Notes under the pieces: model-generated
The model's database searches: none
Seen by the model: only the letters and a program-made list of their open reading frames with translations
Told to the model about the DNA's origin: nothing
DNA from: Vicugna vicugna
Taxonomy: Eukaryota
Length of the DNA: 61,874 bases
Reading direction: 5' to 3'
Assembly (NCBI GenBank): GCA_013265495.1
Contig: MU058206.1
Span: 684,001 to 745,874, forward strand
Shown: positions 1 to 26,704 of the stretch, one piece after another
Numbering within the stretch: the stretch's first letter is position 1
Layout: each line of letters begins with the position of its first letter
Translations under genes and position numbers: made by a program

Positions 1-68
1 CTGTTGGTTTCCCTTGTTTACCCCACTCTCCTTCCCCTGGCACTCCCCAGCCACCCTTTTGCTCGTAC

Positions 69-203
69 CTTGAAAGACTCCAGGAATCCCCCATGGCCCC
101 CACTCTCAAACTTGTCCTCTTCTGGGCCCAGTCCCAGCATGGCCTGCGTGTGGGCGTGGAGTTCGTCGTGAAGGTTGTCCAGGAGGGCTGCCTTCGTCCG
201 GTC
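69..203 (-). pseudogene. RAP1GAP2: RAP1GAP2 exon, 135 nt ([45 protein letters not shown]); acceptor mutated
   Basis: Translation matches recalled RAP1GAP2. Donor AAG|gtacga is intact. The acceptor reads ttcccttccaa|GAC, i.e. AA instead of AG. Confidence 0.92.
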
Positions 204-564
204 TTGGAAGGGAAAAAAAAGGGTGGGGGTGGTTAAGCTGGCACTGAGAGCAGAGATGTGCCCCCCCCCCGGAGGCTCCAGACACCTGGCCCAAGGGCTG
301 TGAATCTGGCCAGCTACATCCCAGCAACAGTGTGGACCTATATCCAGGCTGGGCTTCATGCTCACAAATGCTGCAGCTAACACTACAGCTCCGTGCCCTG
401 CCCCCTGCTCCCTTCTCTCTGTCCCTTCTCCCTGGGCCATCTCGCCCTCCCATGGCTCTGCCCTGATGACTCCCAGCCCAGATCTCTGCCCCAGGCACCA
501 CGTCCATGTACCCAACTGCCCATAGCTCCTCTCCATCCAGGTGTGCATCCAAGGTCACATCTAC

Positions 565-583
565 AGCCACCAGGGGGCGCCAT
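565..583 (+). promoter_or_regulatory. Strong CTCF consensus site
   Basis: AGCCACCAGGGGGCGCCAT matches the CTCF core CCACCAGGGGGCGC exactly. Binding is not shown. Confidence 0.55.
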
Positions 584-779
584 TCACACAGACCAGGACC
601 AACCCTTTCAGCAACACAGCCTTTGCCCGTGCCTCCAAATAGCAGGTCCAGACAGTGTTCCCATGTCAGCAAAGAGCCCAAGCCAAAGGCCCGGGTGGCT
701 CCCCACAATCCCACTTCTCCCCACTCTTATATACAAGAGTCCATCAAGTCTTCCTGACTCTGAGCACTTCCTGTGCTGA

Positions 780-1370
780 AGCAAGCTGCCACTCTGCCTC
801 TTGGACTCCTGTAATAGCTTCTAGCTGGCCCCCTTCCTGCCCTCCTGCCTTCAGGCTGACCGTCACCTCTGCCACCTCCTCCTGTACTTTATTAGGGCCT
901 TATCACCTCTAGCTCAAAGCCTTTCTTGATCTGACCCAACCAGCATCTGCAGCTGGTCCTCCCACCATTCCATCCCCCTCATGAATCCAACCCTCTGGAG
1001 CTCCCTCACGAAGTCATGCTCTGAATCTGCCCGGCCTTTTCATGCTGATTCCCACGCCTGGAATAACCCTCCCCAATCTTTCCTCGTGGCAGAAGTCTCA
1101 TTAGATATCCAGATTTGGCAGCTCCAAGGCCACCTCCTCCAAAAAGCCTTCCCTGAACACACCTTCCATTCCCCACAGGCAGAAGCAGCCACTACCCTGA
1201 GCCACAGCCCCTGCTGGCCTCCGTCATAGTCCAGGGCACTCTATCATACCTGTCTCCACCAGCCGGTGAGCTCTGTAGGGGCAGAAACTGTCTCACTTAT
1301 CCCAGTTTCCCAGGGAACAGAACAAAGCACAGTACACAGTAGGTGCTCAATAAGTAATCAGCGAATGGTT
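780..1370 (+). mobile_element. L2 LINE 3' fragment
   Basis: Ends with a typical L2 3' end (gtgagctctgtaggggcaga...cacagtaggtgctcaataagt...gaatg). Boundaries approximate. Confidence 0.6.
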
Positions 1371-1547
1371 GACTAGACCTAAAGTTTGGAGGGAGTTCCC
1401 ACAAGAAGAAAGAGCTCCACATCAACACAATGCTGAAGGCTTAGAGGGGCAAAGATGGTGCTTCCCACCTTAAATAGCCCCCAAGAATAGACCCTCGAGA
1501 AAGGCTGGCCCGGTGGGCAGGAGGAAGACCAGAAACCTCGTGCTCAC

Positions 1548-1643
1548 CTCCAGCTTCGCAAACTTGTCTGACTTGCAGCAAGCGTTCTCCGCGTTGGTGA
1601 GCTTGGTGGGCTTGGTGAGCAGAAACTCTCTGAACTCTGGGCC
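1548..1643 (-). pseudogene. RAP1GAP2: RAP1GAP2 exon, 96 nt ([32 protein letters not shown]), with a 9-nt tandem duplication
   Basis: Acceptor ttccag|GGC and donor GAG|gtgagc. Carries an extra PTK relative to the conserved [11 protein letters not shown]. Confidence 0.92.
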
Positions 1644-2124
1644 CTGGAACAGACAAGATGCTCCATCCTTAGCTGCTGCCACAGGGCTTTAACCACAGTA
1701 AGAGGCAGGCAGTTCAGGGGGCCTGGGGGGAGAGTCTACTTCTGACACTGCATCACTTTTAGCCCAGCCCAAGCCCACCTGCTAAGATGCCAACATGGAA
1801 ACCAGCTGCCCTGGTGCTAGCAAATCCACTTTCCACACCCACCATAGCACTTCCGGGAGTGGTGGCCACTTGTGCCCAAGGCGCCTGGGACTGGCGTACA
1901 GCATAAAACCCTCCTCTAAGCAGAAAGACAATCCCAGTGTCAAACACCCTGACAAGAGGCCTTGTGCTGGGCTAGGCTGGCAGTACAAGGAGAGGTGGGG
2001 ACAGACACCAAGTAAAGGAGGTTCTCAAGTTCCCAGCCCAATTCGTCCCCCCTGCAACCACTGCCACTCAGGCGTGGCAACCTGGAGTCTCAGACATGAG
2101 GGAGGCAGAAGGAGAGTTTCTTAA

Positions 2125-2195
2125 CTTCTGGAAAACATGGGGCTGGGCAGAGGCGGGCCAAAGGCAGGCACGTATTCCCGGGCAGTGACTGCAAC
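2125..2195 (-). pseudogene. RAP1GAP2: RAP1GAP2 exon, 71 nt (VAVTAREYVPAFGPPLPSP/VFQK); frameshifted, donor dead
   Basis: Acceptor gtttcag|GTT. Length 71 between phase-0 neighbours. Donor reads AAG|ttaaga. Confidence 0.9.
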
Positions 2196-2694
2196 CTGAA
2201 ACACAGGGACTCAGTGTGGGCCACCAGAGGGGAGACACAAGCTGAGGATGAAGAGCGTTCTGAGTCCTGGCCCTGGGGGAGCCCCCTTCCCACGCAGATC
2301 TACTCCCCTTCCCAGAATACAAAGAATGTCCCCTGGGCCAGCGCCAGTGAACCCAAGTCACTGTTCCTAGAAGTGGGGCTGGACTGTGCAGAGCCATCCA
2401 CACGCCCTCATCTGCATTCCAGGAGGCGGGAAGCAAGTTTGGCAAGATGATGGGGCGGGGCTGAGGAGCAGCCTGGAACCCTAACTCTAATGCAGTACCA
2501 AGAGCCCAGGAGATGCTATCTCTTCACCTCATTTGACGGGATGCTCATCCTACAGAGAAGGCGCAGGGAGAATGGTCAGCCCTGTACTCCTGATAAGGAT
2601 ACAGACGCCCAGAGCCGTGGAGCCCTCCCTCCAACGGCACACAGGAGATTAGCCCCGGAGATGAACAGACGATCCAGAGCTCTCTAACCCTGCT

Positions 2695-2865
2695 CGGGGG
2701 TTCTCTACCACAACACTGACTCCCATGACTGGCCATACATTAGAATCACTTCAAGTGTTTAAATACTAGTTACATGGGCTCCACCCTAAACCTACTGAAT
2801 CAGCAGCTCTGGGGTGGAGTCAGGACTCTGCAACTGTTTGAGGCTCCTGAGAGAATCTGTGCGGT
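2695..2865. mobile_element. MER5A-like hAT-Charlie DNA transposon
   Basis: cattagaatcac...ctactgaatcag...ctctggggtggag motifs typical of MER5A. Confidence 0.55.
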
Positions 2866-3182
2866 CGGTACACTGGTGTTTGGGAGCCCTGGCCCCGCAC
2901 ACGGGGTCGGTCTGGGTGAGGCTGAACTCACAGAGCACCAGGGCCCAGGGTGGGAACTGGGGGCAGGGGGACATGCAGGTGCTCTGCATGGGCATGCAGG
3001 CTGGGTGTGGGGTGTGCACCTCTGGCCACCCTGGTGAGGGAGGAACTAATGGAGAGAGGGCACCAAGGTGTTCTTCGTGGGGTCTCCCAGGCTCAGGACA
3101 GGTCCCGCACCTCCATCTCCCCTCTCTGCCTGGAGATGCCCTGGTTTCACCTGTTCTCAGCCCACGAGGCTGCAGGCCTCTA

Positions 3183-3219
3183 TGGAGACCCTGCCCTCTC
3201 CGGAGACCCTGCCCTCTCC
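3183..3219. repeat. 18-bp tandem duplication (ggagaccctgccctctcc x2)
   Basis: Seen directly. Confidence 0.85.
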
Positions 3220-4489
3220 CTTCCCAGGGAGGCTGCTGACATGAGCCCAGCCCTGGTGCGCTGCCAGCCTCCTGGGCCCGGCCCGTGACGTAGGGCAGAT
3301 GCAGAGTCTGCCAGAGCGGGTGAGCAGGCACCTCGGAGCCAGGCCAGGCCGGAAGGGCCCTGCCAGGATCTGGAGTGCAGGGGAGCGGGAGAGGGCTGGT
3401 CAGTACGGCTTTCTCTCCCCCAGCCCCAGGCTGTCCACACGGCCCACACCATGGTGCCCAGAGTCGGAAAAGACTGATGTGATTTCTGGCTGCTTCCAGC
3501 TGCCACACCGTCCCCCTCCACCACCCACCATCACCCTCAGCACAACTCAAGAGTTCCACCCACAGAGCCAAAATCAGGAGGAGGGGACGGCCATGGAGAG
3601 GCTGCTGATGGGACCAGCCCAGAGGCCAGGTTCAGCTCCCCCATCTTCCCACCCCGACGCCGCCTCCTTCTCGGGCTTGCACTGGAGTGTTCTGTGCTGG
3701 CTGGGTGAGTGGCTTCGATATGTTCTGAAAGCAGCCTGAGTCTCCCAGCTGGAAGAGCCCACGAGCCAACTGCCCCGCAGCAGCCGGGTCAGAAAGGCGG
3801 GGGACGGGATCTTCCCTTTGCTGGCTGTTCTCTAACCCCACGTGCTCCCTCCCGTCCAAATGCCCGGGCCTTTGTGGTTCCCTCCTCTTGGGGGCGGTTG
3901 GGTTGCTGGGCTGAAAGCAGAAGCTGCCTGAACACAACCTCCCCTTCCTACTTTCTAGACCCAGCCAGGGCCTCCTGGCAGGGGCCGGGAAGGAGAGAGG
4001 CAGCAGGTGACTCTGGGGAAAAGGCTCTTCAAGACCGGAAAGTGGAAGGAGGCACGGGTGTGTAAGAAGGATGTTCTAGGAGTGGGGGTGCCTCCAAGAT
4101 CTCCAGACTTGATAAGGTCCCCACGCATGCCCAAGGGTGGCCTGGAAGCCCTGGAGGACCATGACGTCACTCAAGCGACAGATCAGCAGTGAGGGGAAGG
4201 GGGCACACAGCCAGGAGCCGGCCCCCTGGTCAGCTTCGTGTAAGACTCCTGACACCTTTGCAGGACTTCCGGAGTCGGGGCTGGGTGAGCTCAGACAGGG
4301 AGGGGAGGGCGTCCTGGTGAAGGCTCAGCTGAAATTTCCTTCCAGTCTGGCAGGATGGGGATGAAATGTGTGTCTGAAACATAATTTGATGTGATGTTTC
4401 ATGCACACCCCAGATGATGGGTCCAAGTTCCCACCTGCTGTGACGGCTCCATGAGGAAGGCCACAGTCAGACCCGGACAGGACTCTGGC

Positions 4490-4990
4490 TCCACTGTTTC
4501 CATGCTCTGTGGCCTCAGATGTTAAGAAACCTAAGCTCTTGGCTTCAATCTTCCCCCTGTAAAATGGGGCTAACAGGAGGCCTATCTGACTAGAGGCTTG
4601 TGAGAATTTAAGAAGACTGCTTTTAAGGGCCTGGCACAGTGCCCGGCACAGAGCCAACACCCAGTAAGGAGTAATCATTGTCACTCGGTGCTTTTTTAAT
4701 TTTCCCTGCTGTTCTGCACCTAATAAAGGATGAAATACTACAGAGTTTCCCCAAACCACTTCCTAATCCAACACACACACACACACACACACACATCCCT
4801 CTTCCTCTCCTCCTCCTCCTCCCTCTCCACAGCATGTCAGGGCTGGAAGGAGTTCAGAAGTTGTCTACTCCAACTTCTTCATTTCACACAGTTGGAAACA
4901 GAGGCCCAGAGAGGGAAGGAACTGGCCCAAGGTCACACAGCAGTCAGAGGCAGGGCCAGGACCAGAACCCCAGGCTCCCAAGCCGCTCTG
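4490..4990. mobile_element. Two oppositely oriented MIR fragments flanking a (CA)n microsatellite (~4771-4794)
   Basis: MIR core ctgtaaaatggg at ~4557; reverse core gaaacagaggcccagagagg...cccaaggtcacacag at ~4895-4940. Confidence 0.65.
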
Positions 4991-7187
4991 TCTGAGGTCC
5001 TTTCTTGTACATTCCCACCCCTGTCCTTCCCCCTTCCCTCTCCTTCCTGTTGTTTGTCCTCCCTGGTGGGGGCCTCCTGGGGCACTGCTCAGTCCCTGGG
5101 GAACTCTCACCCTCCTTTGCCACAAGCCATAAGCCTGCAGGGGTCAGCTGAGGTCCACGTTACCTGGACCCCCCGAGGGGTCTAACCAGGTCCTCCTCAG
5201 TCCGCCCATCACTGGATGATGCACAGAGCTTTGGGGGCACCTTAGAAGGCTGATCTCCCTCCCTGTCCTCTGCCCTGACCCACAGGTCCTGCCTTCCAGC
5301 TTGGATGTCTGCCTGGCAGGTAGAGTTCAAGGTCCCACATCCCCGTGAGCTCTGCTTCTCACCTCTCTGAGGACAGTGCTTCTCCCTGGACCAGAGATTG
5401 TGGCTGGGGAGACTTGGTAAAGACTTCTAGCATCTGTGCTGGGGGTGGGGTGGTGCTTCTCTGATTTTTCTCTATTTTCCTAACTCTACTAAAGTTCTTG
5501 GGAAAGGGAAGAAGCCAGTTAGCTGGACTCCATTTCCTACCAGGAACTTAAACACTAAACATCCGCAGGAGGCCTCATTCTGCCAGCAGAGGCCCAGCGG
5601 ACGAGCCCCACATACATCCGAGACTGCCTGGCAGGGCCCGGGAGCCCTCCTATCACACAGTTCTATTCTGAGCATCCTTCTGTGTTGCGCTCTCCCTCCA
5701 AGAGCCGTTAAATGAACCAGGTGGCTGGCTGACCTGTGCTCACAGCCTCTTCTGCCCCTTCCCTGAAGCTGGTTCTGTACGTCACTTCCACGTGCCCGCA
5801 CAGTAGGCACTGAATGAGTACGCTTGCTTCCACCAACAAAGTAATTAGGCAGCTGATGGACAGGCATGCCCGTGTGGGTCAAAGCCTTCAAGGAAACACC
5901 CAAACCATGGGTTCTCCAACTTTTCAGCTAAAACTGCTCAGTGACAGAGGAGCGTGAACACGGGCCTGTAAAGGAATCAGTTCTCCTCCATAGGACAGAG
6001 TGTGGGGTTTCTTTTGTGTTTGGAAGCCTCCTATTTGGTTTTTAAGCGGATGTGACTTTTGCACTTAATATACCTGGATTTGTACTGATAAAAAAGTCAT
6101 GTAACAATTATAGAACATCGTTTTTCTTTCCCAGAATATTCAAACCAAATTGATACTTTGTAAAGAAGGCCATGAAGTGCTACGGCCTCCTGAACCCTGG
6201 AACCAGCTTTGGCCTAAGTTAATACACAGGAAGCCTTGCAGGCCTCAGGGTTTCCCAAGAGCTCCTTTGCGCTCTCCCTGACAACACTGGCTCCTAACAC
6301 TGGGGGGCGCAGGGAGTTCTGAGAATTTGAGCTACAGCCTCTCTCCTCTGCAGACACAAAGCAGCACGTGAACTCCACAGTTTGTACCTATCTACCAAGG
6401 GTTCAAAGACTTATCTAACATCCACTTTAAAACCCCTGCCTCAGTCTATGTCCCTTGGGTCCCCTGCTCCCCTCACCACTGTGTGACAGAGAAACTGTGG
6501 CCCAAGAGGTTGGAATCGTTTCTCACAGTTAAGGCGAGGGATAGTGACACAGCCATCAGGAGGTGTGGGGTGAGGGCCCGAGGCGCATCTGCATCAGTGA
6601 GGCGTCTGAGAAAGTCCACTCGTGGGTCAGGAGCTGAGACCCAGGTGCTCACAAGCCCACCCCACCCCCGCCCCCAGGAGTCTTCAAATGAACGTGGCTC
6701 ATTTGCCCAGAACAGCTAAACCAGAGGGACCCCCAGGGGGCCAGGGTCTACCAGGACCCCTGCCCTCCACTTCTCATCATGAACATTTCTCCTTTTTCTT
6801 TCTTCCTTTTGTCTGTTACTGTCTTTCTTCCTCTCCTCTCTCCTGACAGTCCTCTCCACTTTCTCTTTTTTTCTCTCCTGTGGCTCTGCCTTACCCTAAC
6901 AAACAGCATTACCAGACTTCAAGTAGGGACAAGGGAGCCTTCTCAACCCTTGAGGTAGAGGCTGTCCCATCTGGAGGCAGCAAGACAGACCAGGGAACCT
7001 GAGAAGGTGCTCTCCAAGGGTCTAACTCCCAAATCTCAGAGACCCAAGAACTCATGGGAAATCTATCACGTGTTAGAGACCGGTCTGAGGAGCCACTGAG
7101 AACTGGTGTTCCTTGACATCACTGATTCTGTTAAGTGTGGTGAGGTGCCTGGGCCCCCCGCTTCCTCCAATGAGATCTTCTCCTTAC

Positions 7188-7343
7188 CTTGTAGGATGGG
7201 GTCTCCATGCCCAGGTTCTCAGCCTGCACTACAATGTAGGCATGTAAGAAGTTGGATGCAATCATATCTGGGACAAACGGTGTGTTTTCTTCTTGGAAGA
7301 TGATGGCCACAAAGTCATTCCCAATGTGTCTCTTTCTCTGGAG
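7188..7343 (-). pseudogene. RAP1GAP2: RAP1GAP2 exon, 156 nt ([52 protein letters not shown]), containing the catalytic Asn-thumb motif
   Basis: Acceptor tttag|CTC and donor AAG|gtaagg. Open frame with the KRHIGND RapGAP signature. Confidence 0.95.
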
Positions 7344-8639
7344 CTAAACAAAAAGTGTTCCATTGTTATAAGCCAGTTAGGAACATCCTGAAAACAGAAT
7401 AGAACAGAATACAGGAAATTCTTCTTTGTTCTATCTTTATACATAAACCTGGAACACTGAGATCTCTCTCTCCAGGGAGCTTTTTCTTTCAATCTTTAGA
7501 AGCCACTAAAAAGGAAGAAAATGAGGAAGAGGCCTAAGTTGCTAGGAAGAGGCTAGCAAGCCTCTGACTGAGCTCTGCAGCATGTAGAGAGCCCTGACTT
7601 GGGACTGGTGATATAGTTAAAAGGTGATGCCAGGTTTTACCCTGGGAGAGCCTGTATTGGATCAGGGAGAGACACAAACACAGGTGGAGCCCCTGGAGAA
7701 CACTAGCAAAGTCACCAGGCAGCAAGTGCTGAATCAGCCACTGCCTACGTAGTGCCTAACACTATAGGAGTAGAGAAGAGGGCAAAATCAGGGGCCTGAT
7801 GGTAATCTGAGAAGGCTTCCTGGAAGAGGAGATTGGGTGAGGGGGGAGCACTTGATGGACATGTGGATGAGCAGGGAGGAGGGGGCAGATTATCCTATAC
7901 CAGAAGGGAGAAGAACCATACTTAGAGAAATATGGACACGCTGGCTTGGTGGAGGTCATGGGGGAAGACAGAAATCCGGCCCCAATTCAGCTTCCCACGC
8001 TCAGCCAGGTGCTGTCACAGGCGATCCCAATCACCAAGCACCTACTGTGTGTCAAGAACCATGCTGGGCTGTTCACATGCATGATTTCAAATGTTAAGGC
8101 CCTCCTGGAAGCCAAATCCTGGCTCAGTGCTTACCTACACATTTGTTCCTTTATTAAGCACCTACTGCATGCAAGCCTGATGTTTCATGTGGAGTTTCCC
8201 ACTTACTAAGCACCTGCTATATATTAAGCCTCATGCCAGGAACTTTTATAAACTGTCTCACTTATTCTGCACCCATCATCTCATTTCTTAGCAAAAGGAA
8301 ATGAATATTTATTCGGTCCTTGCTGAGAGCCAAGCTCTGTGCACGTCCCACTTAACTGAGGTGACACTGAGAATGAGCCAGGCAGAGACCAGCCCTCAGC
8401 CTCAGGCTAGGGCACGGGGTGAGGGGGGCCGTGAGGGAACAGAGATTGAAGGTGAAACACTGAGAGAAAACCCTCTTTGGAAACAAAAGGAATCCTGCTT
8501 CTATTTGTTTCTGGAACATTCAGTAGTTATTTTAGAGCCAAATCGCAGTCTCCTTTGCCAATTTCCTTTTTTCCTAAGAAGCCAGGCACTGTGTTTACAA
8601 TGTGACTTCTGTGCTCCCTCCCAGTTCTCTACTCGGAAA

Positions 8640-8870
8640 CATGGATCCGTTAGGAAGCCTGCCACAAGCCAGGCATTGTACTGAGCCCCACATTTGGACC
8701 CTTATGTGATCCCCACAACAACCCTCTGATGTCCTTGGTGTTATTCCCATTTTACAGATGAGGCAAGTGAGGCCACAGGGTTAACCGGTTTGCCCAGAGT
8801 CACAAACCCCTAAGTGGCAGAGCTGGCTTCAAGCCACCATCTGCGGACCCTGTCATGTACTCTTCACCAC
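8640..8870 (-). mobile_element. MIR SINE
   Basis: cccattttacagatgaggcaagtgaggc...tttgcccagagtcaca...gtggcagagctgg. Confidence 0.75.
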
Positions 8871-9209
8871 CACCCTACACGGTCTGGGCACCTGGGCTCT
8901 GCTCTCAGCTCTACCCCTGATCACTTGGGAAACAGTTTTTTAACCATATGGAGCTACGATTTCCCCATTGGTCATAGGGAGATAACCAGGGGCCCTGTCC
9001 TGTCTTCCACACAGGCTGCTGACCTACGGCCTTGGTGAGATAACGCAATAGCATGGGCTTTGATAGGAGGAATGAAGCTGAACAGACGGGCCTCTTGATT
9101 ATGAAAACAGGGAAGGGAAGGGGGCCTTAGTCCCTTGGGGAGACCAGACCAGATGCAGGCTCTCACCTCGCACACCCTGGTTTCCCGAAGCCCTCCCGAA
9201 CCTGGTTAC

Positions 9210-9339
9210 CTGCTGGGTGTCTCCCTCGGTAGACGGCAGCTTTGTGGAGACATGAAACACGGTCTCTGTGTCCCGGAATACTGTGTACAGTGATTCTACC
9301 CCTGTCTGTCCGTGCGTCACGTCCAGGCCTCCTCGGAAA
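9210..9339 (-). pseudogene. RAP1GAP2: RAP1GAP2 exon, 130 nt ([43 protein letters not shown])
   Basis: Acceptor caag|T TTC and donor CAG|gtaacc. Contains the FRGGLD and FHVST RapGAP motifs, with substitutions at conserved sites (EIMFHV>ETVFHV, LPFT>LPST). Confidence 0.93.
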
Positions 9340-9399
9340 CTTGGTGAAGCATTCAAGTGCCAGGGGAGGGAGGGGGGAGGGAAGGAAAGTGGGGAAGTT

Positions 9400-9613
9400 T
9401 GTAACAACCAACCGCACCCCCTCCTCTGTTTTTTTGTGTAAAAAGAGCCTGAATTCTGACTGGGGGAGGATGGTTCTCCAAGATATTTAGTTGGCCATCC
9501 TCTCCGTCGGTCTGCCTGCTTTCCGAATAATGTCGCTATTCCTTGCCCCAACACCTCGTCTTCCGATTTATTGGCCTGTCGTGTGGCCAGCAGAACGAGT
9601 TTGGACTCAGTAA
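9400..9613 (+). mobile_element. 3' half of an ERV1-type LTR at the RAP1GAP2 breakpoint
   Basis: TATA-like and PAS-like (aataat) remnants, and an end typical of these LTRs (attccttgccccaacacctcgtc...ttattggcctgtcgtg...tttggactcagtaac). Family not assigned. Confidence 0.6.
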
Positions 9614-15345: not shown

Positions 15346-16117
15346 CAAGGGATCTGCTCTATTTCCCTGGTAACATAGGATAACACAGGTAACGCCTGAC
15401 TTTTAGGATGCCTAGAACATCCCTTCTCAGGCACCATGAGCTCCAATGTTGGTGCCCTAATTGGACCAACTTTTTCCAAACTTATCTCTCCTTCTCACTT
15501 TGCCTCCCAACTTCCACGTCATCTGACCTCCACCAGATCACATGTATAATTCATCAAAATCATGAAGGAAAGGGAATTCTTCTTAATGATTTCCTGTTAT
15601 GACAGTTGATAGATTTAATGAGCTATACCTTGATATATTTAAAACTCATGCAAACACTCTTAGGTCAAAGGATTTCATCTTTAGCGGTTACATTCCACAA
15701 AGAGTTGGGAAATTTAAATTTTTAAAGTTCTGTGGGTATTACTGGTAACTACTTAGTGCTCTAGTTTTCTGTGGGAATTTGAAAATGAAGCCATCTGCTA
15801 TAAAGACATCTGCACTACTTGATCCTGTGAACTCACCCTTTGGACTCTACCCTAAAAATACACTTGAACAGAAGCACTAAACCCCAGACCTAGAGGCTGC
15901 GAGGTTGGCAGAGGGTCACTAGAGGCCAAGACCCGCTCGGAGCGGGAAGGGCGAAGGAGAGGTCAGAGCACCGCCCTCGCTCCACCCCCGCCGAGCTGGC
16001 CCAGCCCCTCTCACCAGCCCCTTAAAAAAAAAAAAACAGAAAAACAGCGTGGGCGATCCTTGCACAGGCGCAGGGCTGCTGGCGCTTGAGCGCGCACACG
16101 TGGTGACTAGTAGTGGG

Positions 16118-16213
16118 ATGGCGGAGTTGGTGCCTTTTGCGGTTCCCACCCGGAGTGACAAAACCTTGCTGGTGTGGGAGCTGAGCTCCGGACCCAGGAC
16201 CGAGGCCTTGCAG
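16118..16213 (+). pseudogene. RDM1: Orphan coding exon 1 of RDM1 (MAELVPFAVPTRSDKTLLVWELSSGPRTEALQ)
   Basis: Good Kozak context gggATGG, 96 nt, donor CAG|gtgagc. Matches the recalled RDM1 N-terminus MAELVPFAVPIESDKTLLVWELSSGPTAEALH. Exon 2 (HSLFTAFSQFG...) was not found. Confidence 0.9.
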
Positions 16214-16849
16214 GTGAGCTGGCCAGGGTGGAGGGAGGGATGCAGAAAGCCGCCCTCGCCCCAATACCTGGGAGTCCCTGGCCAGGTGACAACACCCCCC
16301 CCCGTACGAGCCTGGCGCTGCAAGGTGACCCCCACTCCGCACGAACAAATCAATAAAGAATAATCCTTTGGCTGGGTGTGGGGTGCGGGTGGGGAAGGGA
16401 GCGCGTAGTAGTGGCGGGGCGGGAAGGCGGCGGTGGTTCAGCCCGGGGCGCTCTCGACCGCTCGCGCGCACGCACGCTGGTCCGTCAGCCCACTCGGGGC
16501 CGAAGGTGGACTCAGCGCTGAGCCGCCGGCCCAGGCCCAGAAAGGCGCCGGGCGGCAGCTAGGGTGCGCGGGCGAGAGCCTTTTACCCACCGGAGCTGCG
16601 AGGGAGGGAAGAAGCGATCGGAGAACGGAGGGGGCCGCCCGCGCGCACGCGCGCCGCACCCCGCCTGCCTCGTCCGCCTGGCTCCGCGCAGGAGGACGGA
16701 GAGGGAAGGGTCAGGCCGGAGTGCCCTGGTGCCGCGGGTCCAGTAATGTGCCCCTCGCGCGGCGCCCTGGGGGCGAGGCGGGTTCCGGTGTGCTGCGATT
16801 TCCCCCGCCCTCGGGCGGCGGGAGGCAGGCGGTGCTGTGCGCAGGCGCG

Positions 16850-16990
16850 CCTGGCAGAGACCACCCCCGCCCTGCTTGGGGCGGCCCGAGGTGGCCGGGG
16901 CAGCGGCGAAGGCCTCCAGCTCCCCCCGGGCGGGGAGCGGCAACGGCAGGGGAGCCGGCGGCGGGCGGAACGGCGGCTGCCGCTGTGGAG
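16850..16990 (+). other. Candidate non-coding first exon of a second gene, possibly ARF2/ARL17-like
   Basis: Lies downstream of the NRF1 site and ends ...AACGGCGGCTGCCGCTGTGGAG|gtagga (splice donor). The ARF2/ARL17 resemblance is from memory only, and no ARF coding exon was found. Confidence 0.35.
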
Positions 16991-19519
16991 GTAGGAGCCC
17001 TGGTCAGGACCCGCTTCCCTACCCCAGCCGTGTGCCCGACCATGTACTCAATCCGCAGGCCCCTGGTGCCTGCGTTCGGCGCGGCCTCCCGTGGCCTCGG
17101 CATGTTGGGTCAGTAGCGCCTGGGCCCTGGGACTGCAGGGGTCAAGAGGTTGGGGTACCGAGTGTGGAGGAAGGGTGATGGGGTATGAGGAAGAGAATGG
17201 TGGAGGCAGAGTAAAAGGGGAAAGGAGCTCCGCTGGGCCAAGTGGTTAGCGGTGGCAAGTGGGAGTGTAGCGGAGTGATGGGAGTGCAGAGTGGGGAGTA
17301 ACTGGGGACCGCTGTGGTGTTTAGGTGTGGCTTGGAGCAGGTCTGTTGTCATCGGAGGTGAGGGGTGCAGAGTAGCTGGCTTCGTAGCGTGAATTAGAAT
17401 AGGAGCAGGGTGAGACCTGGTGTGGAATAGAGAGGGGGAAGGGGCCAGGGGCTGTGTTTGAGTAGTGGGACTAAGGACAGGTCTTGAGAACTGAGCGAGG
17501 GACTGTTTGCTCAGAACAGAGTGATGTGTTTGTGGTGTTCTTTACAGAGAGGGAGAGACCCAGGAACCTGAGGGGAGTGCCCTGGGGAGGCGTTCAGGAA
17601 GGGCAGGACCGAAGGATTGTTCCCCCGTTGTCTCCTGGGCCCCTTCTTCCCCACCCAGCAGAAGATGACAGAAGATGACTCTGGTGAGAAAGGTCTTTGT
17701 GAAGAGAGGGGCAGGTCCAGGTCTCTAGGGGCTGTTACAGTTTTGGAGGGCCCAGCAGGCTTTTGGGGCTCCAGTGCCCCAGTGGTAGGGGATGGGATTG
17801 TCCCGGTGTCTTGAGTCCCTTCCAGTGTTGGCTGCTTTGTTCCTCTCCTGTTGCCTCGATATCTGCTTTTTCTTTTGTCAACACCTTACAGAATCAGGTT
17901 TTGAGGCCAGTGCCTCACACAGGGGCTCCCCTAGACCAGCCTTCTGAAGGCATGGGTGGGGTGGGGTGGGGAGGATCAGCCCAGGTCAGATTGATCTAGA
18001 TCAGGGGAAAGCATGGAACTATGGGGACCAGGGCTAGGGTGGCTCCCTTCTCTCTTCATGGTCTTCCTTTAGTAGGGGCTCCTCTGCTGGTTCCACTTCC
18101 CCCAGGGAGCCCGCAGTGAGAAGGAAGCCCACTCCCAGCCTGGGCCAGCCCCAGGAGTCCAGCCAGGGGTGGGACCCAGCCTAAGGCTGACTCTCCTACC
18201 ACCTAGCTTCTGGAGCAGATTGGACACCTGGGACTGGTCCCTTCGTGAGGGAAGAACCATCCTGTGTGTATCCTCAAGGAAACACTTGGCACTGTTGCCT
18301 TCCCTGGGCAGAGACTTGTAATGATTTTCTTGTCTGCCTCTTTGTCTGTGTCCTTTTTTTTTTTTTATTTTTTTTTTTGGAGGAGTTGACTGCATCTTCC
18401 CATCTTTTGGGCAAGAAGACTGGATGAAAAAAAGAAAAAAAATAATGCTTTGACTTTATTTGTTAAATTTTTATGAATATACTTCTACACTACATCCTAT
18501 CTAAAATTGAAATAGAGATATAAGAAAGATCTAGCAATGTAAGAGATCCACAGTAATGTGTAAGTTATTTAGAGAGTTGGTGAGATATTTACACTCAAAG
18601 AAGCTTGCTAATGCAGATGATGCTAAAAGAGTGCTAATTCTTTTAGTTGTTTATAAAATGTATAGAGGTATGTGTGTTCCTTCTCACAGGGGTTAGTAAC
18701 TAGGGGAGCAGGGCTGCTACAGATTCAGGTCCTACTTCAGTGGCAGGTCCGTCTTATCTCTTCAGGTCATATTCTCAGTCAGTAGCTACAGGATGACATT
18801 AAAAAAAAATAACAGAAAGAATATGCCAAGCAGTGTGCCTAGTGTTGTGAACTCAAAGATGGGTAAGACGGAGCTCCTTCTAGCAACTCCTGATCTCACA
18901 GGGAAAATAAACATAAGCTCAGACCATCATGCGCAAGCACTGAGTGGATGACAGGGTGCTGCAGAGGCGTGGAAAAGGGAGCTGTGAAGTAATAGACCTA
19001 TGTTTCTCCTAAAACAGTCGTTTTCCTCCTGTTCACTCCCCAACTAATTGTTTATTTTTAAAACTGTCTGACTTTGCTTAATGTCCATGCATTGGCTTTA
19101 AACATGATAGACAATGCACATGAGCAGGTCTAGCCCATACCTTCAAGGAGTTTATACTCAGAGGAAATGGGCTGCAAAAAAAAAGCTATATAAGAAAAAA
19201 AGAAGTGGAGAGGGGCAATGAGAGCTCTAAGTTGGTTTTGGAGCTCAGAAGAGGGAAGAAAGACTTCAAACTGCATCAGGGAAAATGTTATTAGAGCAGT
19301 GCTGTTTGAACAGGACCTCAAAGAGCCCCTGTATGTCATCAGACAGACATCTTGGGAAGAATAAATTTGAAAAAAGAAGGTAGGAGAGAGGCAAAACACA
19401 GGAAACATGCTTTGAGTACCTGGAGAGTACAAGTAGGAAGAGTAGGAGATTAGGGCCAGGTCATCGAGGGCTTCGAAGGCCACGCCTAGGGTAACAGGCT
19501 AGGCTGCCCCGTTCCCACA

Positions 19520-19670
19520 GCAGTGCTCTTGGACAGACTCGAGCCTGCAGCAGAATCAGTCATTTGGAGGGCTTGTTAAAGCACAGGTTGTGCCCCACAG
19601 TTGCTGGTTCAGTTGGTCCAGAGCAGAGCTGAGCGTTTCTTCAGTAAGTTCCCAAGTGAGAACCACTTCG
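19520..19670. mobile_element. MER5A-like DNA transposon
   Basis: cagtgctct...cagaatca...ggagggcttgttaaagcacag...aagttccca...tgagaaccact. Confidence 0.6.
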
Positions 19671-20357
19671 GGAGAGTTAATCCGGTGACTGTACAGGATG
19701 GCTGAGAAAGGAAGAGACTACAGGTGCAAACACCAGTCAGAAGACAGTTACACCCACCCAGGAGAAAGGAGAGACTAAGAATCAGTGGAAGTAAGATAGC
19801 CAGCTATAGTCAAGTGTGGGTGTTTCAAATAAAAGTCAGTATTTTAGTATAATACTCAATTAGTTCAAATTACACATTAATAAGAGGAGTAATCCCTTTC
19901 AAGTCGTGTGAAAGGCTATCTTTTATTTCTTCTGGTATTGAATTGGCATAGAAAATCAGAATTAAACTGGGAGGTGTGTAAATAGGAGAGTATTGCTTTT
20001 CATATTAAATATAATTATATATTGAGGTTAAAAACTTTGAGCTTATAATCTAGAATTTTTTGAGACCACAAAAGTTTATCTAATCAGTTCTGCTCTGAGG
20101 AAAGATTACCTCCAAAATCTACCCAGATCTATATAGGTGTATGTTTTATTTATGAACATCATGAAAGTGAGACTCTTAAGACAAGTGAGGGCAGGGTTAG
20201 GGGCTCTAGAAGGTTTAAATAACAATTCATAAGGTTTAGAGGTTATGTAGAACTGACTTATTCATTATTATTATTCTAACCTCTACTAGTTATTCCTGCT
20301 GATGAGATACCTAGTAGCTAATTGAGGCAATATATATTTTCCTTTTCCTTTTCCTAG

Positions 20358-20429
20358 AGATTTATCCTGCAATAAAATACAGCTTATTGAAAGTGGTGTA
20401 TTTGAATCACTACCTTTTCTGGAGTTTCT
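20358..20429 (+). pseudogene. LRRC37A: LRRC37 LRR exon, 72 nt ([23 protein letters not shown]); donor dead
   Basis: Acceptor ttttcctag|A. A 72-nt phase-2 LRR exon matching recalled LRRC37A [23 protein letters not shown]. Donor reads ataagt (GT>AT). Paralogue (A or B) not resolvable. Confidence 0.88.
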
Positions 20430-20564
20430 ATAAGTTACAAATATAACTTAATTGTGTTTGGGATTTGTATAAAACTTAATTTTTATAAAATTAATTTGAT
20501 ACTCACTTTGAAACAATTTTAGCATAGAAAGCTACTAGAATTATGTAGCTAATCCTTTTTGTCA

Positions 20565-20740
20565 CTAGCAAAGATTTGTACTCAGATGACACTTGGCAAT
20601 GTCTGGAGACACTTCTGGTTATCAGAACTATAGATATGCTGCTGCCATCTGGTGGACAGAGGCCAGAGATGCTGCTAAACCCCCTACAGGGTGCTAGAAC
20701 TATTGGGCCCAAAATGTCAGTGGTACTGCCCCTTGCTAGA
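20565..20740. mobile_element. MER20 DNA transposon carrying a CTCF motif (20641-20658)
   Basis: ttggcaatgtctggagaca...gaggccagagatgctgctaaac...gggcccaaaatgtcagtggt; the reverse strand reads TGTCCACCAGATGGCAGC. Confidence 0.75.
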
Positions 20741-20987
20741 GAAATAAGGATCACTTAACACAAATATTGAGAATTTACTGTTTTGTGTATATATATTGTG
20801 TATATAATCATGAAAATATAAATCATAAACAGCTATTTTCCACAGTGAGATTTCTTTAGTGTCTGGAAGGGATAATGAGGTTATGTTTCATTGTATATAA
20901 ATCAGAATTACTGCCAAAGGATAATGTTCTGAAAGAATATTTCTTTCTGTTTTTGCTTTTGTCTTTTTTTTTTTTCCTTTTTTGTAG

Positions 20988-21069
20988 AAATCTTGGTTGC
21001 AACTTAATCATTGGTCCTGAGTTTTGGAATGTTCCGGGCCTGGCATGGAATGCAGTTTTTACACAACGT
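20988..21069 (+). pseudogene. LRRC37A: LRRC37 LRR exon, 82 nt (NLGCNLIIG/LSFGMFRAWHGMQFLHN), with a 1-nt insertion
   Basis: Acceptor tttgtag|A and donor gtaagt are intact. Matches recalled LRRC37 NLxCNxITELSFGTFQAWHGMQFLH once one base near 21016 is removed. Confidence 0.88.
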
Positions 21070-22847
21070 GTAAGTGAAATAGATGAATACATGTAAAAAA
21101 TTATGTGTTTTGGTTATTCGTAATTGTTTAGCTGGGTGTAAGCTCATTATGAATTCCAGAAATTATGTCTTGAGATCCATTCTTTTTTTTTGTTTGTTTT
21201 TTTTTAATGAGAAAACTAAGGTACAAAGAGGCCAAGAGACTTGCCTAACTCACATGATGGAACACTTTGCTTTCCCTAGTACTGATCTTTGGCACAAGCA
21301 ATAAAATAAAAGGCACCCGACAGAAACACTCAAATTAGCATTGTCATGGAATCCCATTGTTGCTGCTCCAAAATGCGAATGGTACTTGAAATTCCACTTT
21401 TGAGTTTAATTCCTGCTCACGTGCAAAATTCCTAACTGCTTAAAATGTATGCAGCACAGAGCTGTAAAGAACTAAGTTTAGCCTAAAATTCTTCAGGGAG
21501 CAAAAGATATGGGTGCTTCCTCAGGTGTTAGCTTCTTTGAAATGGTAAAGCAGAAAGAATTCCTGAACACCCACCACTGGGCACCTCTCTTCCCAACCAC
21601 CCAAAACATTATTTTTCAAAAAGTATATATGTCTGTAGTGAATTATCTGTGGCCAGTAGGAACCTTTGAGGTGTGGATGTTTGTGTTACGCTGTACTGTG
21701 AAAAATATAAAGGAGATTCATTGCTATCGCCTAATTCTGTGTACTTTTATTCCTGACTACTACTACTAAGTGTGGACTTTTCAGAATCTTGAAAATTCTG
21801 TGACCTCTCCATGTCACAAGCAGATCACAGCGGGTAGGTTCAGTGGCCTGAAGGGGATTTTAGACTCAAGGTGAAGAGCCTCCTCTAAATCAGGCTTTGG
21901 AAAAGACTCTCCTATTTGGTGGTTCAGAAATCCAGTTTCACACAGTTCACTTTGGGTTAATGAAGGTGTTGAGGGTGTGTTGAGCTGGATTAGCAGTTCT
22001 GCACATGCCCACCAGTGGCATCTCCCTCCCCTCTTCATTAGTTTGCTGGTGCCTAACTTGCGGAAAGAGAACAGAGGGTCAGTTTTTCTCCTGCCAGCAC
22101 ACCAGAGAGGGGGCTCGTTAGGTCCCTCCACCAGGAAGTTTTAGTAGCATCAGTACCATGTCTTAAACTCGTGACCTTTTGTAAACATTTTATAACACCG
22201 AGAATCTCTTATAAGAATCTGAGTTTCATTATAGTTATGTAGGCAACCCAGGGGGAAAATTGTGGAATCACAGTTGATAAAAATTAATGAATTTATTCCA
22301 AAACATTCACTGAGTGCCATGGGCACTGTGTGTCTGCCCTGCCCTACGTGCTGGGGTTACAAAGAAGAATAGGCCAAAGACTTTGTCCCCAAGAACCTTT
22401 CATACTGGAAGAAAATTGATGGGAAAACTTACGAGAGCCATGCTAGCATCTCTGCAGGAGGGTAACAAGCTAGAGGGGCAAGGAAGTAGAAAATGGGTGG
22501 TGGGTTAGAAAAGATGGTCGTGGAAGAGGCACGAGCCTGTTCCTCTTGTATTTCTGTGTTCATCTTAAATGGCAGAAAAAGTTAATGAAAGAATCAGAGG
22601 TGGTGTTGGAAATAAATTAATACTGTACTCCTAAAATTCATTCACAGTTACTTTCAAAAGGTGGTCAGAATACAGTAGGTGTGTATTGGGGGCTGGGCTC
22701 CTCCTTTGTTCTGTGCCAAATAAAAAAAGTCTAGATGGTGCCACCCCTTGAGTTGTCATTTTGTTGCCTATAATGACATATTACTGGGGTGTTTATAAGT
22801 TGAAATAATATTTTCCCCTGTATTAAATGTCTGGAAAAGGGCCTCAG

Positions 22848-23035
22848 CTGAGGTGGATGTATCATGAATTAAATGAAGCTGAAGCTGCAGGGCTCACCAC
22901 TTGCCTAGGTCCCTTCCAAGGTCTTAGGAGGGGTCCTAGCAATTTTTATGTTCATAACTTTGCATGTTTTTATTAGATGGGATTTTTCCAAAGTAGATGA
23001 GGTTCAAGCCCCACAAAACCTTGATTCATCCCCAC
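22848..23035 (-). mobile_element. MER53-like hAT DNA transposon
   Basis: gaggtggat...aatgaagctgaagct...cccttccaagg...caagccccacaaaaccttgattcatcccc resembles the reverse of MER53. Confidence 0.6.
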
Positions 23036-23199
23036 AAAACCTTGGTTTCAGGTAATTATAACTCAGTAGGTTTCTTGATTCAAACCTCTATGTTACTGAC
23101 AAACACCAGGTGAACAAGTGAGAGGTGTGCTAGAGTCTACTTTGAATCTGAAGTCCACCTCAAAGACAAGCCAAGAGCTAATTAGTTAATAAAGTACCG

Positions 23200-23450
23200 T
23201 TTTTTAACTTTGTTTTGTTTTGGTGGTGGGAGGTAATTTGACTTATTTGTTTATATATTCTCCGAGGTGGTACTGGTACTGCTAAGTTTAATTATTTCCT
23301 CCTTATCTATAATTTTTGTCGCTTTGATTACTATGTGACTTGGTGTGCTTCTCTTTGGGTGGATCCTGTGTGGGACTCTCTGTGCTTCCTGGATGTGGGT
23401 GACCATCTCCTTTTCCAAGCTGGGGAAGTTTTTGGTTATTAGGACGTGGG
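23200..23450 (-). mobile_element. 3' tail of a camelid SINE followed by an L1 fragment
   Basis: Reverse strand reads ccagtaccacc...aaacaaataagtcaaattacctccc plus an A-rich tail; then L1-like tgggactctctgtgcttcctgga...ggggaagttt. Confidence 0.5.
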
Positions 23451-23929
23451 CTATTTTTCAAGGCTCCCACTGGCATGGAGAGCAAAGGTCTAGGACAAGT
23501 TAAAGCAACACAGATCTCACTGTCCCGACAGAAGTTAATGTGTTTTTCTTAAATAAATTGCTCCTCAGATTGCTGCAAGCCTGTTGATTAAATTTCCAGA
23601 GTTCTGAGAAAGTTGATTCTGACCATCTTTGCCAGTTTTTGTTGTTGTTTTATGGAGGGATGAATTTTCAGATGTCCTCACTCCACCGTTTACTGATTAG
23701 CCTGCAACATGGTTTAAAATCTCTAAAGCCTCAATGACTATAGGCTAATTAAATATTTAATCATGGGAGATAATTGAAGAAAAGAAATAAGAGAGAAAGT
23801 GTAATTCTCATAGAGGCTCTCCCAGGTGGGGAGATGAAATTTGAAAAGGTATTTCTATATTTAGTGCCCTCAGAATTAAGGTTAAAGTAACAGTTATTTT
23901 AAACACACTCTTTTTTTTTTTTTTAATGC

Positions 23930-24140
23930 AGGTTAAACACAGGCTTTGGAGTCAGAACTGAGTTCAAATTCCAGCTCTGCCTCTTACTAGCTTGATGACT
24001 TAGGACAAGTTACATAACTTCTCTGTGCCTTGGTTTCCTCATTTGTAAAATGGGATAATATTATCTATCACATAAGGTTACAGTGAGGATTAAATATTAA
24101 ATGTTGATCATAGGTACCTGGCAATCCAAAGGGTGTTAGT
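23930..24140 (+). mobile_element. MIR SINE
   Basis: ggctttggagtcaga...ttcaaattccagctctgcc...gtttcctcatttgtaaaatgggataat. Confidence 0.85.
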
Positions 24141-26704
24141 TGTGATGATCTTTATAATATAATGTGAAAAGTACACTAATGATTCTTGAGTAGAGTTAAT
24201 TAACTTAAAGGCAGATTTTCTTTTCTTTCTTCCTTTTTCCTTTGGGTTTTTAAATTGTTTTTCTTTTTCTTGTTTGTTTTAAAGAATTGAGAAGAAAATC
24301 TATTCCAGCACTTTGGAATAAAAATTTGTTTCAGAAAAATGAATTTGTCACTGTTGATATATAAACAATATTATTTATTCAACAAACATTTATTAAGTAC
24401 CTAGTAAACATTGGGCTCTGTGTCAGGCACGGAGATGACAATGACAATAAAGTATACTCCCTGCTCTCACGGAGCTGACAGTCTGGGACTGACAAGTAAG
24501 CAGTGACCCCACACACGGCAGCAGAGGCTCTGATGGAAGCACACACGGGAGTGTGCGGTGGGAGTGTGGGTCTCCCCAGCTCCTCTTGTATTCTTTTCAG
24601 CTCCAGAACCAAGGGATTGGTCCTACTTTTGTCTTTCACTGGGTAGTTTAAACCATGAAATTTAAAAAATTTCTAGAGATGAAAGAAAAATGCCTTGAAT
24701 TATGGAGGACACTAAAACAGTATTTCTTACAGAGGAGGGGCTTCCTACCAGCATAGTCCCTTCTAGGGTTTTTGACCTAAAAAGTTCTTTGACTTTTTTT
24801 TTCTTTGCTATCCATCTTTTTTCCCTATTTTTTTCTTTCTGTTCTCCACTTTATTATCTAGACACCTGGGTAGTTCCCATATGAAGAGTGCTTTATGAAT
24901 TCTAAGGGTGATTTGTAGGTAAATTCAGAAAAAAATTTTTTTTTTACCTTCAAGTTCCATATCAAAATAATGAATATAAACTTTCATGGACATTATTGAA
25001 GTTCCTCTCCATGTTCCGGACCGCCTCTGCGCTCCAGTGGGAGAGAACGCTGCAGGAGAGAGAGGGGCCTCCCACCACTTCCTCTACCTGTGCTGGGTGG
25101 TCCCACCTGCCCTCCACTTGGGGGCGAGGAGTTGGCCCTTATCCCAGGAAGAAAAGTGATCCCTTCCTGGTGAACCACCCCGGTGTCAGTGGGGAGCCCA
25201 GAGCCCAGTGCCCAGCCACCAGGCAAGGAAGCAGTTGCCGGCATCTCCAGGGGAGGGATCACAGGACCCTTGAGAGTCCATCCCCATCTCTTCCCTCTCC
25301 CACACTTAACCACCAGCTCCCCCTCCACCACGGTGAACTCCACCTAAGTTAGGAGAGCATGAGGAAGGGGAACCACCAACTCAGCAAGGCTCCCAGGGGA
25401 GGTCACATGTGGTCTGGGCCTTGACAGAGGGGAGGACCTTGCCAGAGCAGGGAGGGGAAGCCATTCTGAGCAGAGGGGCTGTCTGAGAGAGGGTGCAAAA
25501 GCGTGGAAGGAGGGGCGGTGTGCGTGAAAATGCTGAATCATCAGTTTGGAGACAGCACAAGGGATGGGAGAGCGAGTGGATTGAGATGGAGCTGGCCTCG
25601 CACGTTGGGGGCACCCTGGATGCCCCCCGTTCTTGTGGATCACCCTCTGTGCTTGAAATGCCCATCCTGCCCTGGGGGCAGCCAGCAGGACCCCAGGCAA
25701 AACCTCCTGCTCCTCTGAGAACCTCTCCCCATCCACTCTCTCCTTCCAGACTTGGTGGCTGGAGTCTGGCTGTCCCTGGGTGTGTCTGGTTGCCATCACC
25801 CTTGTCCGCAGGCCTCTCTCTCCCCGGCTGCTTTGCTAGAATGTGCGTGTATGGCCAAACCTCGGGCGCAGCCTCCCCTACTCTCCCGTGGTTCCGTGGG
25901 CCGCAGTACAGAGTGCAGCCCAGACAAGCCGCCTGGCACCTGCTGCTTCAGGAAAGAAGTTTGGCCAGGAGAGGAGAGGGGGGCTGGTCTGACGTGAGGT
26001 GAATGGGATACCTGACCCCGATCCCCCCCGAGTCTTGAGTCCCCGCTTCTCAGAAACATATTCACCCAAGCAGCCCCCGGGCCTTTGGCCTTACCTCCTT
26101 CATTCTACTTTTAGAAAAACCAGGGACTCTGCAGCAGGGAGTAGCCTATTTTGACAGAGTCCAAGTGGAGCAGCGTGGGGAGGGGTAACCGAAGGGGCGG
26201 GAAGCGTGTCTCTGTTGGCGGGCACTGCCTTGCCCGGAACTCGCTTTTCTTCCCCAGTGTTAATTATCAAAATTAACTGAACAGTATAAATAACTCAACT
26301 CGGAGACTTGAAAAGCCTCACTTCTAATTAATTCATTTTCAATCAAGACACTTCTGCACGCCCCCTACCCTAGAATCTGAGGGATGGGAACCTCATTGTG
26401 CTGCTTTTTAGATATCGAGTCCCTTGCTCCTGAGATGTGAAAGCTCAAAGAGAAAAGAGAGAGAGGAAGGAAAAACACTCAGCTTCCTTGGAAGGGGACA
26501 GCCTATAAATAACCCCATATTGGTGCATTTGATGGACAACATTCGTGTCTAGATTGGCTTTTGTCGAGATGAGGAAACATGGAGGGTGGGGGTGGGGTGC
26601 AGAGACTTCCATCTGCCGCCTCCTTTACTGGGCAATAAATTTAAAGCAAGACTGTGAGCACCGTCCAAGGCCTCTGTGTTGGCTAGAGCTGGGGAGACTG
26701 ATCG

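Follow-up and report, generated by a model that had tools for sequence, protein, structure and literature searches.

A mosaic block of the vicuña genome as a probable member of a camelid LRRC37-centred segmental-duplication family carrying a CIC-derived CpG island

The stretch of DNA discussed here (the window) comprises 61,874 nucleotides of Vicugna vicugna (assembly GCA_013265495.1, contig MU058206.1, positions 684,001 to 745,874, forward strand) and forms the last 62 kb of scaffold C1629 in a 2.03-Gb assembly, beside an N gap. The mosaic of gene fragments at window positions 1-25,000 is real and old, very probably representing a decayed member of a camelid segmental-duplication family centred on LRRC37. 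Its donors are RAP1GAP2, a long terminal repeat (LTR) together with P3H4-JUP intergenic DNA, the 3' end of LYZL6, RDM1 exon 1, the 5' end of CIC, and the leucine-rich repeat (LRR) exons of LRRC37. With comparable confidence, the module shared by the family can be regarded as the ancestral LYZL6-RDM1-LRRC37 interval, whose history may be described in four steps.

The assembly was searched with window 1-15,100 and 15,000-25,100, and the resulting pieces were sorted by donor. Paralogous scaffolds were read in part, so that copy counts are lower bounds. Distances are Kimura two-parameter values (K2P) in substitutions per site.

Architecture of the block and its native core

An initial annotation of the DNA, made from the letters alone, had described pieces of RAP1GAP2, LYZL6, RDM1 and LRRC37 together with a second CpG promoter. 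All four genes are indeed present with introns kept, as indicated by matches to assembly loci, Pfam and camelid proteins. Its count of at least four genes in 25 kb stands for the genes named, but a fifth source, P3H4-JUP, was missed at 9.4-13.6 kb. Each of its five junctions coincides with a sequence break, located at 9,394-9,404, 13,614-13,628 (placed there at about 13 kb), 16,355-16,371, 18,426-18,452 and 24,996-25,000, and two further junctions, both deletions, lie at 10,011/10,013 and about 18,800/18,816. The idea of a camelid, multi-copy, LRRC37-centred mosaic with foreign flanks also agrees with the data, the closest named proteins being those of Vicugna and Camelus. The search for parent loci and copy number that it had proposed, run in this assembly, mapped the donors and placed the LRRC37 LRR region in eight copies at 86-92% identity, within a multi-copy hub at 82-92%. 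The block begins 4.9 kb to the left of the window, with unique DNA beyond, and all pieces left of 25 kb differ from their relatives by K2P 0.06-0.11, versus 0.013 for the right flank.

LYZL6, RDM1 and LRRC37 had been counted among the shuffled partners, a view that has to be abandoned, as they are native neighbours shortened by deletions. Their native order follows from three observations. Cattle and sheep gene tables list PLEKHM1, RDM1, LYZL6, RPRML and GOSR2 consecutively (PMC7655849, PMC9104502), and cow LRRC37 is single-copy in the syntenic region at chr19:45 Mb (PMC3530683). Moreover, the fuller paralogs carry LYZL6, RDM1, LRRC37 exon 1 and the LRR exons unbroken and in one direction. The paralog on C5342 holds a 1,118-codon LRRC37 exon-1 frame and a 693-codon C-terminal frame.

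In the window, this module starts with the LYZL6 3' end and the LYZL6-RDM1 spacer with the RDM1 CpG promoter (13614..16117, plus strand), which have paralogs on C8008, C9185, C3564 and C10464. The last LYZL6 exon lies at 14,057-14,126, with a poly(A) signal near 14,244, and in each of the four paralogs an exon of the Lys domain (Pfam Lys on C8008) is found about 2 kb further upstream. The exact name LYZL6 is partly our assumption, since "lysozyme-like protein 6" came as a lead, though a high-scoring one, from the Atlas.

RDM1 coding exon 1 follows at 16118..16213 on the plus strand, and the next exons of the C8008 paralog match RRM_1 and DSRM_RDM1. A profile-free search with exon 1 was uninformative, its matches all being long repeat proteins of 31-58% identity; for exon 2 the Atlas gave nothing and the homolog search returned one dolphin protein. 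In the window copy exon 2 is deleted, about 2 kb having been lost near 16,280-16,340, and the remainder of RDM1 intron 2 (18453..18800, plus strand) ends at a deletion of 13-18 kb in which RDM1 exons 3 onward and LRRC37 exon 1 are gone. This deletion was sized from the paralogs on C8827, C5342 and C10464, where the corresponding gap contains LRRC37 exon-1 repeats. None of the RDM1 copies that were read is intact, so the gene may have been lost in camelids. The RDM1 copy at C8008:1,040-1,050 kb has open exons 1-3, a doubtful exon-4 donor and a frameshifted later exon, and the LYZL6 exons there look open.

The pseudogenic LRR region of LRRC37 occupies 18816..25000 on the plus strand and is 86-92% identical to seven other copies. 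Two exons, at 20,358 and 20,988, align with camelid proteins annotated as LRRC37. The former (20,358-20,429) has a dead donor, the exon from 20,988 is frameshifted, and the piece is cut about 35 bp short of the next LRR exon. Judged at the level of sequence, the window copy is dead, a pseudogene mosaic with nothing intact encoded. Elsewhere, at C1629:642 kb and C8808:498-500 kb, LRRC37 exon-1 and C-terminal-exon sequences are adjacent but point in opposite directions, an arrangement like that of 5'-inverted retrocopies.

Right of the 25.0-kb break, the minus strand at 24996..35950, with a provisional right end, carries an inverted duplicate, younger in age, of the scaffold's own start (C1629:2,896-12,792). 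It is 96-98% identical to that start apart from a 1-kb indel, shows K2P 0.013 over 4,773 sites and joins LRRC37 over 5 bp of microhomology. No reciprocal LRRC37 3' piece starting at the break was found among the eight LRRC37 matches, which leaves a simple inversion splitting one LRRC37 gene unsupported. Further right, window 37,184-38,730 holds an endogenous retrovirus remnant (LTR and a gag-like stretch) at 78-89% identity to many dispersed copies. Window 59,561-61,146 is 95-97% identical to the starts of the small scaffolds C7590 and C9632, which would be a further young duplication or unmerged haplotypes by the N gap.

Such features raise the question of whether the junctions, wholly or in part, were created by the assembly, which is fragmented, built from short reads and here rich in repeats. 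Copies of the hub are concentrated on small scaffolds and near the ends of scaffolds, the right flank repeats the start of its own scaffold, and the reciprocal LRRC37 3' piece is missing. The junctions private to the window (10.0, 16.3, 18.8 and 25.0 kb) rest on one assembly, with the window at a scaffold end beside an N gap, and this also counts against the family reading. Mis-joining, however, cannot create a divergence of 6-11% between the pieces and their donors. Junctions are seen again among the other copies and in gene models from Camelus, the one at 13.62 kb being crossed by diverged copies on C3564 and C8827 as well, and short microhomology of 4-6 bp is found at the 9.4, 13.6 and 25.0 kb joins. 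We therefore consider a general artefact highly improbable. Its best case is the 25.0-kb join, for which a divergent haplotype would be another explanation. Sampled words of window 9,000-18,999 were recovered at 0.43-0.50 in 14 DNA-type runs (7 studies) and at 0.07-0.18 in six RNA-type runs, values not used as evidence.

The CIC insert in RDM1 intron 2

The "second CpG promoter" derives from the capicua gene (CIC): it is the 5' end of the short isoform, with exon 1 and 1.3 kb of intron 1. It occupies 16371..18426 on the plus strand as a CpG-island leader, exon 1 and part of the intron, and is 85% identical to C6399:738,102-739,860. The locus at C6399:738-740 kb is the only match without RDM1/LRRC37 context and is followed by capicua HMG-box exons (PDB E 2e-39); the intron part differs from this parent by K2P 0.098. 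CIC coding exon 1 (17,042-17,108, plus strand) retains an open frame and an intact donor, and the insert codes for 22 residues. CIC-S is known to come from an alternative promoter, and the published guide for mouse Cic-S exon 1 (PMC13390769) matches the parent exon at 18 of 20 bases and the window at 17 of 20, as compared by eye. Exon-like stretches suspected at 17.5 and 18.1 kb proved to be CIC intron. From human synteny (19q13), CIC presumably lies on another chromosome.

Both ends of the insert carry marks of an L1-type insertion. A 16-bp target-site duplication (TSD) has its left copy in RDM1 intron 2 at 16355..16370 (plus strand), with one mismatch to the perfect pair of C8008, and its right copy at 18,437-18,452 (plus strand). 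Between insert and right copy, comparison with the parent reveals an A-rich tail at 18,427-18,436 (plus strand). On C8008, the insert sits between RDM1 exons 2 and 3; the 16-bp direct repeats on its two sides are identical, and a run of A precedes the right one. Both TSD copies are present in all four inserts with both ends available, and one end remains in two truncated copies. The 16-mer, allowing at most one mismatch, occurs eight times in the 605,664 bases searched, each time at an insert end, and not once in the CIC parent. The tail, about 7-15 bases long and thus short as well as degraded, is found in five of five copies aligned or printed, and is absent from the parent. The L1 endonuclease prefers the target TT/AAAA, from which the insertion target, AT/AAAG, differs at two positions. 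For the CpG promoter, the earlier statement that the block consists of DNA duplications rather than retrocopies thus fails on the TSD and the A tail. From these hallmarks, we infer an L1-type, RNA-templated insertion of an unspliced, early-terminated transcript.

Several points weigh against this mechanism. A 218-N gap in the parent hides the exact 5' start of the copy; the parent shows no canonical poly(A) signal ahead of the point where the insert ends (read by eye); and the exon-intron junction is kept, unlike in a normal retrocopy. The insert consequently lacks the intronless structure of a processed pseudogene, exon 1 continuing into 1.3 kb of intron 1. The retained intron, the absence of splicing and the lack of a canonical poly(A) signal favour a rival in which the piece was captured as DNA, through templated insertion in double-strand-break repair or a small duplicative transposition, with the flanking repeat arising from a staggered break; the primate DND1/BPTF promoter captures are, in addition, described as segmental duplication. 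Against such a DNA route stand an A-rich tail missing from the parent and a 16-bp TSD that begins in an A run after a T. Moreover, the insert begins just downstream of the parent's CCAAT boxes and does not contain them, and the observed features fit two of the three L1 hallmarks given in PMC7692494. DNA capture is accordingly an unlikely origin, and L1-type retroposition remains the preferred one.

CIC-derived DNA is present in nine hub copies (seven examined as sequence, two by match), including all four with LYZL6 exon 2. The copies branch nearly star-like, almost at once, from the parent; this, together with their presence across the hub, indicates an insertion shortly before the expansion. 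The CIC leader has a CpG observed/expected ratio of 0.87-0.90. Decay of CpG to TpG or CpA affects 12/68, 8/68 and 10/70 sites in three leader copies, as against 51/135 in the younger RAP1GAP2 introns (12-18% versus 38%; Fisher p 0.004, 8e-5 and 4e-4). As CpG decay is low relative to these introns, the leader would seem to have been unmethylated in the germ line.

One may tentatively propose that several mammalian orders have independently made use of the RDM1-LRRC37 interval as a duplication core, and that in camelids the retroposed CIC 5' end gave LRRC37 copies a broadly active, putative CpG-island promoter just before their expansion, convergent with the primate DND1/BPTF captures. This broader proposal is possible yet doubtful. 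Several observations count against the main reading of the block and, in the case of the proteins and the deleted leader, against a promoter role. The CpG control is imperfect, differing in age and context, with many "other" changes in the GC-rich leader. None of the 141 proteins from the LRRC37 search contains a CIC-derived peptide, and annotated LRRC37 transcripts point to the RDM1 promoter. The C8008 copy has most of the leader deleted, and another copy is 5'-truncated. In alpaca and dromedary, RefSeq models of LRRC37 open with RDM1 exon 1, and in a dolphin model RDM1 is likewise joined to the LRRC37 upstream exon; read-through from the RDM1 promoter is thus the annotated route and is not camelid-specific.

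Two further loci carry CIC-derived sequence. At the end of C9185, a 5'-truncated insert is fused to the CpG island of another gene. At C1629:646-648 kb, 38 kb left of the window, a more decayed hub fragment holds RDM1 exon 1, the left TSD, the CIC leader, an LRRC37 intron piece and an inverted CIC exon 1.

Probable capture of RAP1GAP2 and JUP-upstream DNA

The recruitment of RAP1GAP2 into the mosaic is well founded, window 3-9404 being 90% identical to the intact gene. The piece (1..9404, minus strand) is internal to RAP1GAP2, includes five exons with introns and corresponds at 90% to C3564:7,496,397-7,505,749, with K2P 0.074 over 8,401 sites. The complete gene spans C3564:7,406,489-7,519,722, and at a site that distinguishes Camelus ferus from alpaca its exons have the alpaca residue. 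In the window, the exons lie on the minus strand at 9210-9338, 7188-7343, 2125-2195, 1548-1643 and 69-203, placed by protein alignment and, for two of them, by Pfam. Rap_GAP was matched by two of the four exons scanned; no Pfam family was returned for the other two, for RDM1 exon 1 or for one LRR exon, whose identity comes from protein alignments.

Next to this piece, the 3' part of a solo LTR (9394..9614, plus strand), within which the RAP1GAP2 junction falls, has many dispersed matches at 83-88%; a fuller LTR lies just past a P3H4-like 3' end on C10464, and another on C4155. The following segment (9615..13625, no strand assigned) is P3H4-JUP intergenic DNA from upstream of the JUP promoter, 88-91% identical to C10464:363-372 kb (K2P 0.062) and shortened by a 4.4-kb deletion at 10,011/10,013. 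The donor is flanked on one side by leprecan-family exons (Pfam TPR_leprecan), which by their position are probably those of P3H4, and on the other by a CpG island and then plakoglobin exons. At C10464:372-375 kb, the P3H4-like 3' exons by JUP show substitutions and an apparent frameshift and may belong to a P3H4 that was disrupted or duplicated where a hub copy inserted.

RAP1GAP2 had been thought to lie far away. In this assembly, the last exon match of the intact gene ends 32 kb from an RDM1/CIC/LYZL6 hub copy on C3564, and on C10464 a further hub copy is separated from the JUP-side donor by about 30 kb. Capture of neighbouring DNA by secondary duplication is the simplest reading of how both pieces entered the mosaic. 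A second partial RAP1GAP2 copy on C4155 shows the same RAP1GAP2-LTR-JUP-upstream order with other breakpoints, so the adjacency is ancestral to two copies that are 6.8% apart.

The RAP1GAP2 fragment has counterparts in gene models. RAP1GAP2-like models, with up to nine RefSeq isoforms, exist in Vicugna pacos, Camelus bactrianus, C. dromedarius and C. ferus, and they carry the derived residues of the window. In Camelus, five terminal exons align to DNA on the left of the RAP1GAP2 exons, and four of these fall within the unique flank. As these isoforms end in unique left-flank DNA, the left junction predates the split of Camelus from South American camelids, put at 11-25 million years in published estimates. 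Camelus and window differ at 8 of 147 residues in neutral terminal exons, about 2.4% at the DNA level with a wide error; the RAP1GAP2 and CIC events lie at roughly three and four times this distance, figures too rough for absolute ages. Window 9318-9320 (minus strand) encodes Val where the alpaca and Camelus models start with Met, which may reflect polymorphism, reversion or annotation choice. C1629:679,378-679,689, a single monomer of an approximately 250-bp tandem satellite inside the RAP1GAP2 duplicate, is a terminal exon in Camelus models.

One may ask whether the hub has acted as an exon-shuffling engine, producing a new coding gene for a truncated RapGAP protein of 144-229 residues that is kept by selection. 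The breadth of the RefSeq annotation across four camelids would favour this, as would the first two exons, which are open and keep a motif that we take to be catalytic, and a ratio of nonsynonymous to synonymous differences (pN/pS) against the parent of 0.048/0.147. That ratio, however, comes from 95 codons only, and the parent is conserved too, so that a neutral duplicate would give about the same pN (half of the intron value 0.074, that is 0.037). Additionally, the third exon is frameshifted in the window, alpaca and camel models, the C-termini vary freely among isoforms, and the Rap_GAP domain is present without its N-terminal third. A selected gene is thus quite unlikely. The exon shuffling claimed in the initial annotation likewise gains no support, as the window copy, marked by frameshifts and lost splice donors, holds no intact chimeric frame. 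In its RAP1GAP2 part, one base and the splice donor are lost from exon 2125-2195, and 9 bp are duplicated in exon 1548-1643.

With its third exon frameshifted and a nonsynonymous rate that fits neutrality, the RAP1GAP2 fragment is most likely a transcribed pseudogene whose spliced RNA runs into the unique flank. Transcription is deduced here from annotation, the style of such isoforms suggesting that the models rest on RNA evidence. By the same annotation, the window block as a whole most likely acts as a transcribed pseudogene, with two CpG islands (RDM1 and CIC) at 16-17 kb in addition to the RAP1GAP2-fragment RNA.

Taken in order, the history could have proceeded as follows. In a stem camelid, L1 machinery would have reverse-transcribed an unspliced, early-terminated transcript of the CIC short isoform and inserted it in RDM1 intron 2, at a point 5-7 kb upstream of LRRC37 exon 1. 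The module would then have been copied around a chromosome resembling human chromosome 17, including sites beside RAP1GAP2 and P3H4/JUP; the positions are observed, and the direction of copying is the presumed one. Later copies probably took up neighbouring DNA, accreting into a RAP1GAP2-[LTR]-JUP-upstream-LYZL6-RDM1-LRRC37 compound. Finally, the window copy would have lost RDM1 exon 2, RDM1 exons 3 onward with LRRC37 exon 1, and the LRRC37 3' half, the last of these through the much younger inverted duplication.

Relation to known core duplicons

The term core duplicon denotes a module found in the majority of the intrachromosomal duplication blocks on a given chromosome (definition cited by PMC3530683 and PMC6920530). 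By analogy, the camelid family may work like the primate LRRC37 core duplicon (PMC3530683, PMC3371713, PMC6920530), with which it shares the central gene, dispersal of copies on the homologous chromosome, mosaic flanks, fragmented copies and a foreign CpG-island 5' region upstream of LRRC37. LRRC37, RAP1GAP2 and the RAP1GAP2-like models lie on contigs of identical size within each species, which points indirectly to a single chromosome, a placement that extends to some but not all scaffolds of this assembly. Mosaic flanks are seen in the mapped RAP1GAP2 and P3H4-JUP donors and in gene models from Camelus in which SMTNL2-like sequence is fused with exons of LRRC37, SMTNL2 being another recruited neighbour. 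RDM1/CIC/LRRC37 DNA recurs in the duplication blocks found, in searches that were seeded with the window itself. The camelid family differs from the primate one in its independent lineage, in its partners (RAP1GAP2, P3H4/JUP and, in Camelus models, SMTNL2) and in the greater age of its copies (86-92%). Its foreign 5' region, a candidate promoter, comes from CIC and bears retroposition hallmarks, whereas the primate DND1 and BPTF promoters are described as duplicated.

Outside primates, cow and dog have one complete LRRC37 each (PMC3530683), and whales have several LRRC37-like models. A complex copy-number variant (CNV) on dog chromosome 9 contains DNA orthologous to LRRC37, RDM1, ARHGAP27 and VPS13D (PMC4053742). 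There too, the RDM1/LRRC37 interval of a non-primate mammal shows instability and a junction with a foreign gene, and the authors of that study already suggested mammal-wide instability. The dog case is a single locus, described as a CNV with no mechanism, age or promoter capture, whereas the camelid copies are dispersed and number at least eight. Equid LCORL retrocopies (PMC10249811) offer another parallel from an ungulate family, an ancient L1-mediated insertion later multiplied by segmental duplication; those are gene retrocopies giving most LCORL transcripts, in contrast to the unspliced 2-kb 5' fragment of CIC. Instability of RDM1/LRRC37 beyond primates and amplification of a retro-insertion by segmental duplication are thus already in print. 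No publication on a camelid LRRC37 duplication family was found in a literature search that covered few subscription journals.

A 2019 review named two open questions, whether the expansion of core duplicons is confined to the human lineage and what part the cores play in duplication. In camelids, the same core gene appears to have expanded independently, to have recruited other neighbours and to have gained a foreign CpG-island 5' end before the burst. The family and its CIC insertion would hence represent an independent replicate of the primate core-duplicon story. If the promoter proposal were true, promoter capture would be a cause of core-duplicon spread and not a by-product. The family would also offer a natural replicate in which to ask whether open, germline-transcribed chromatin at the core drives duplication.

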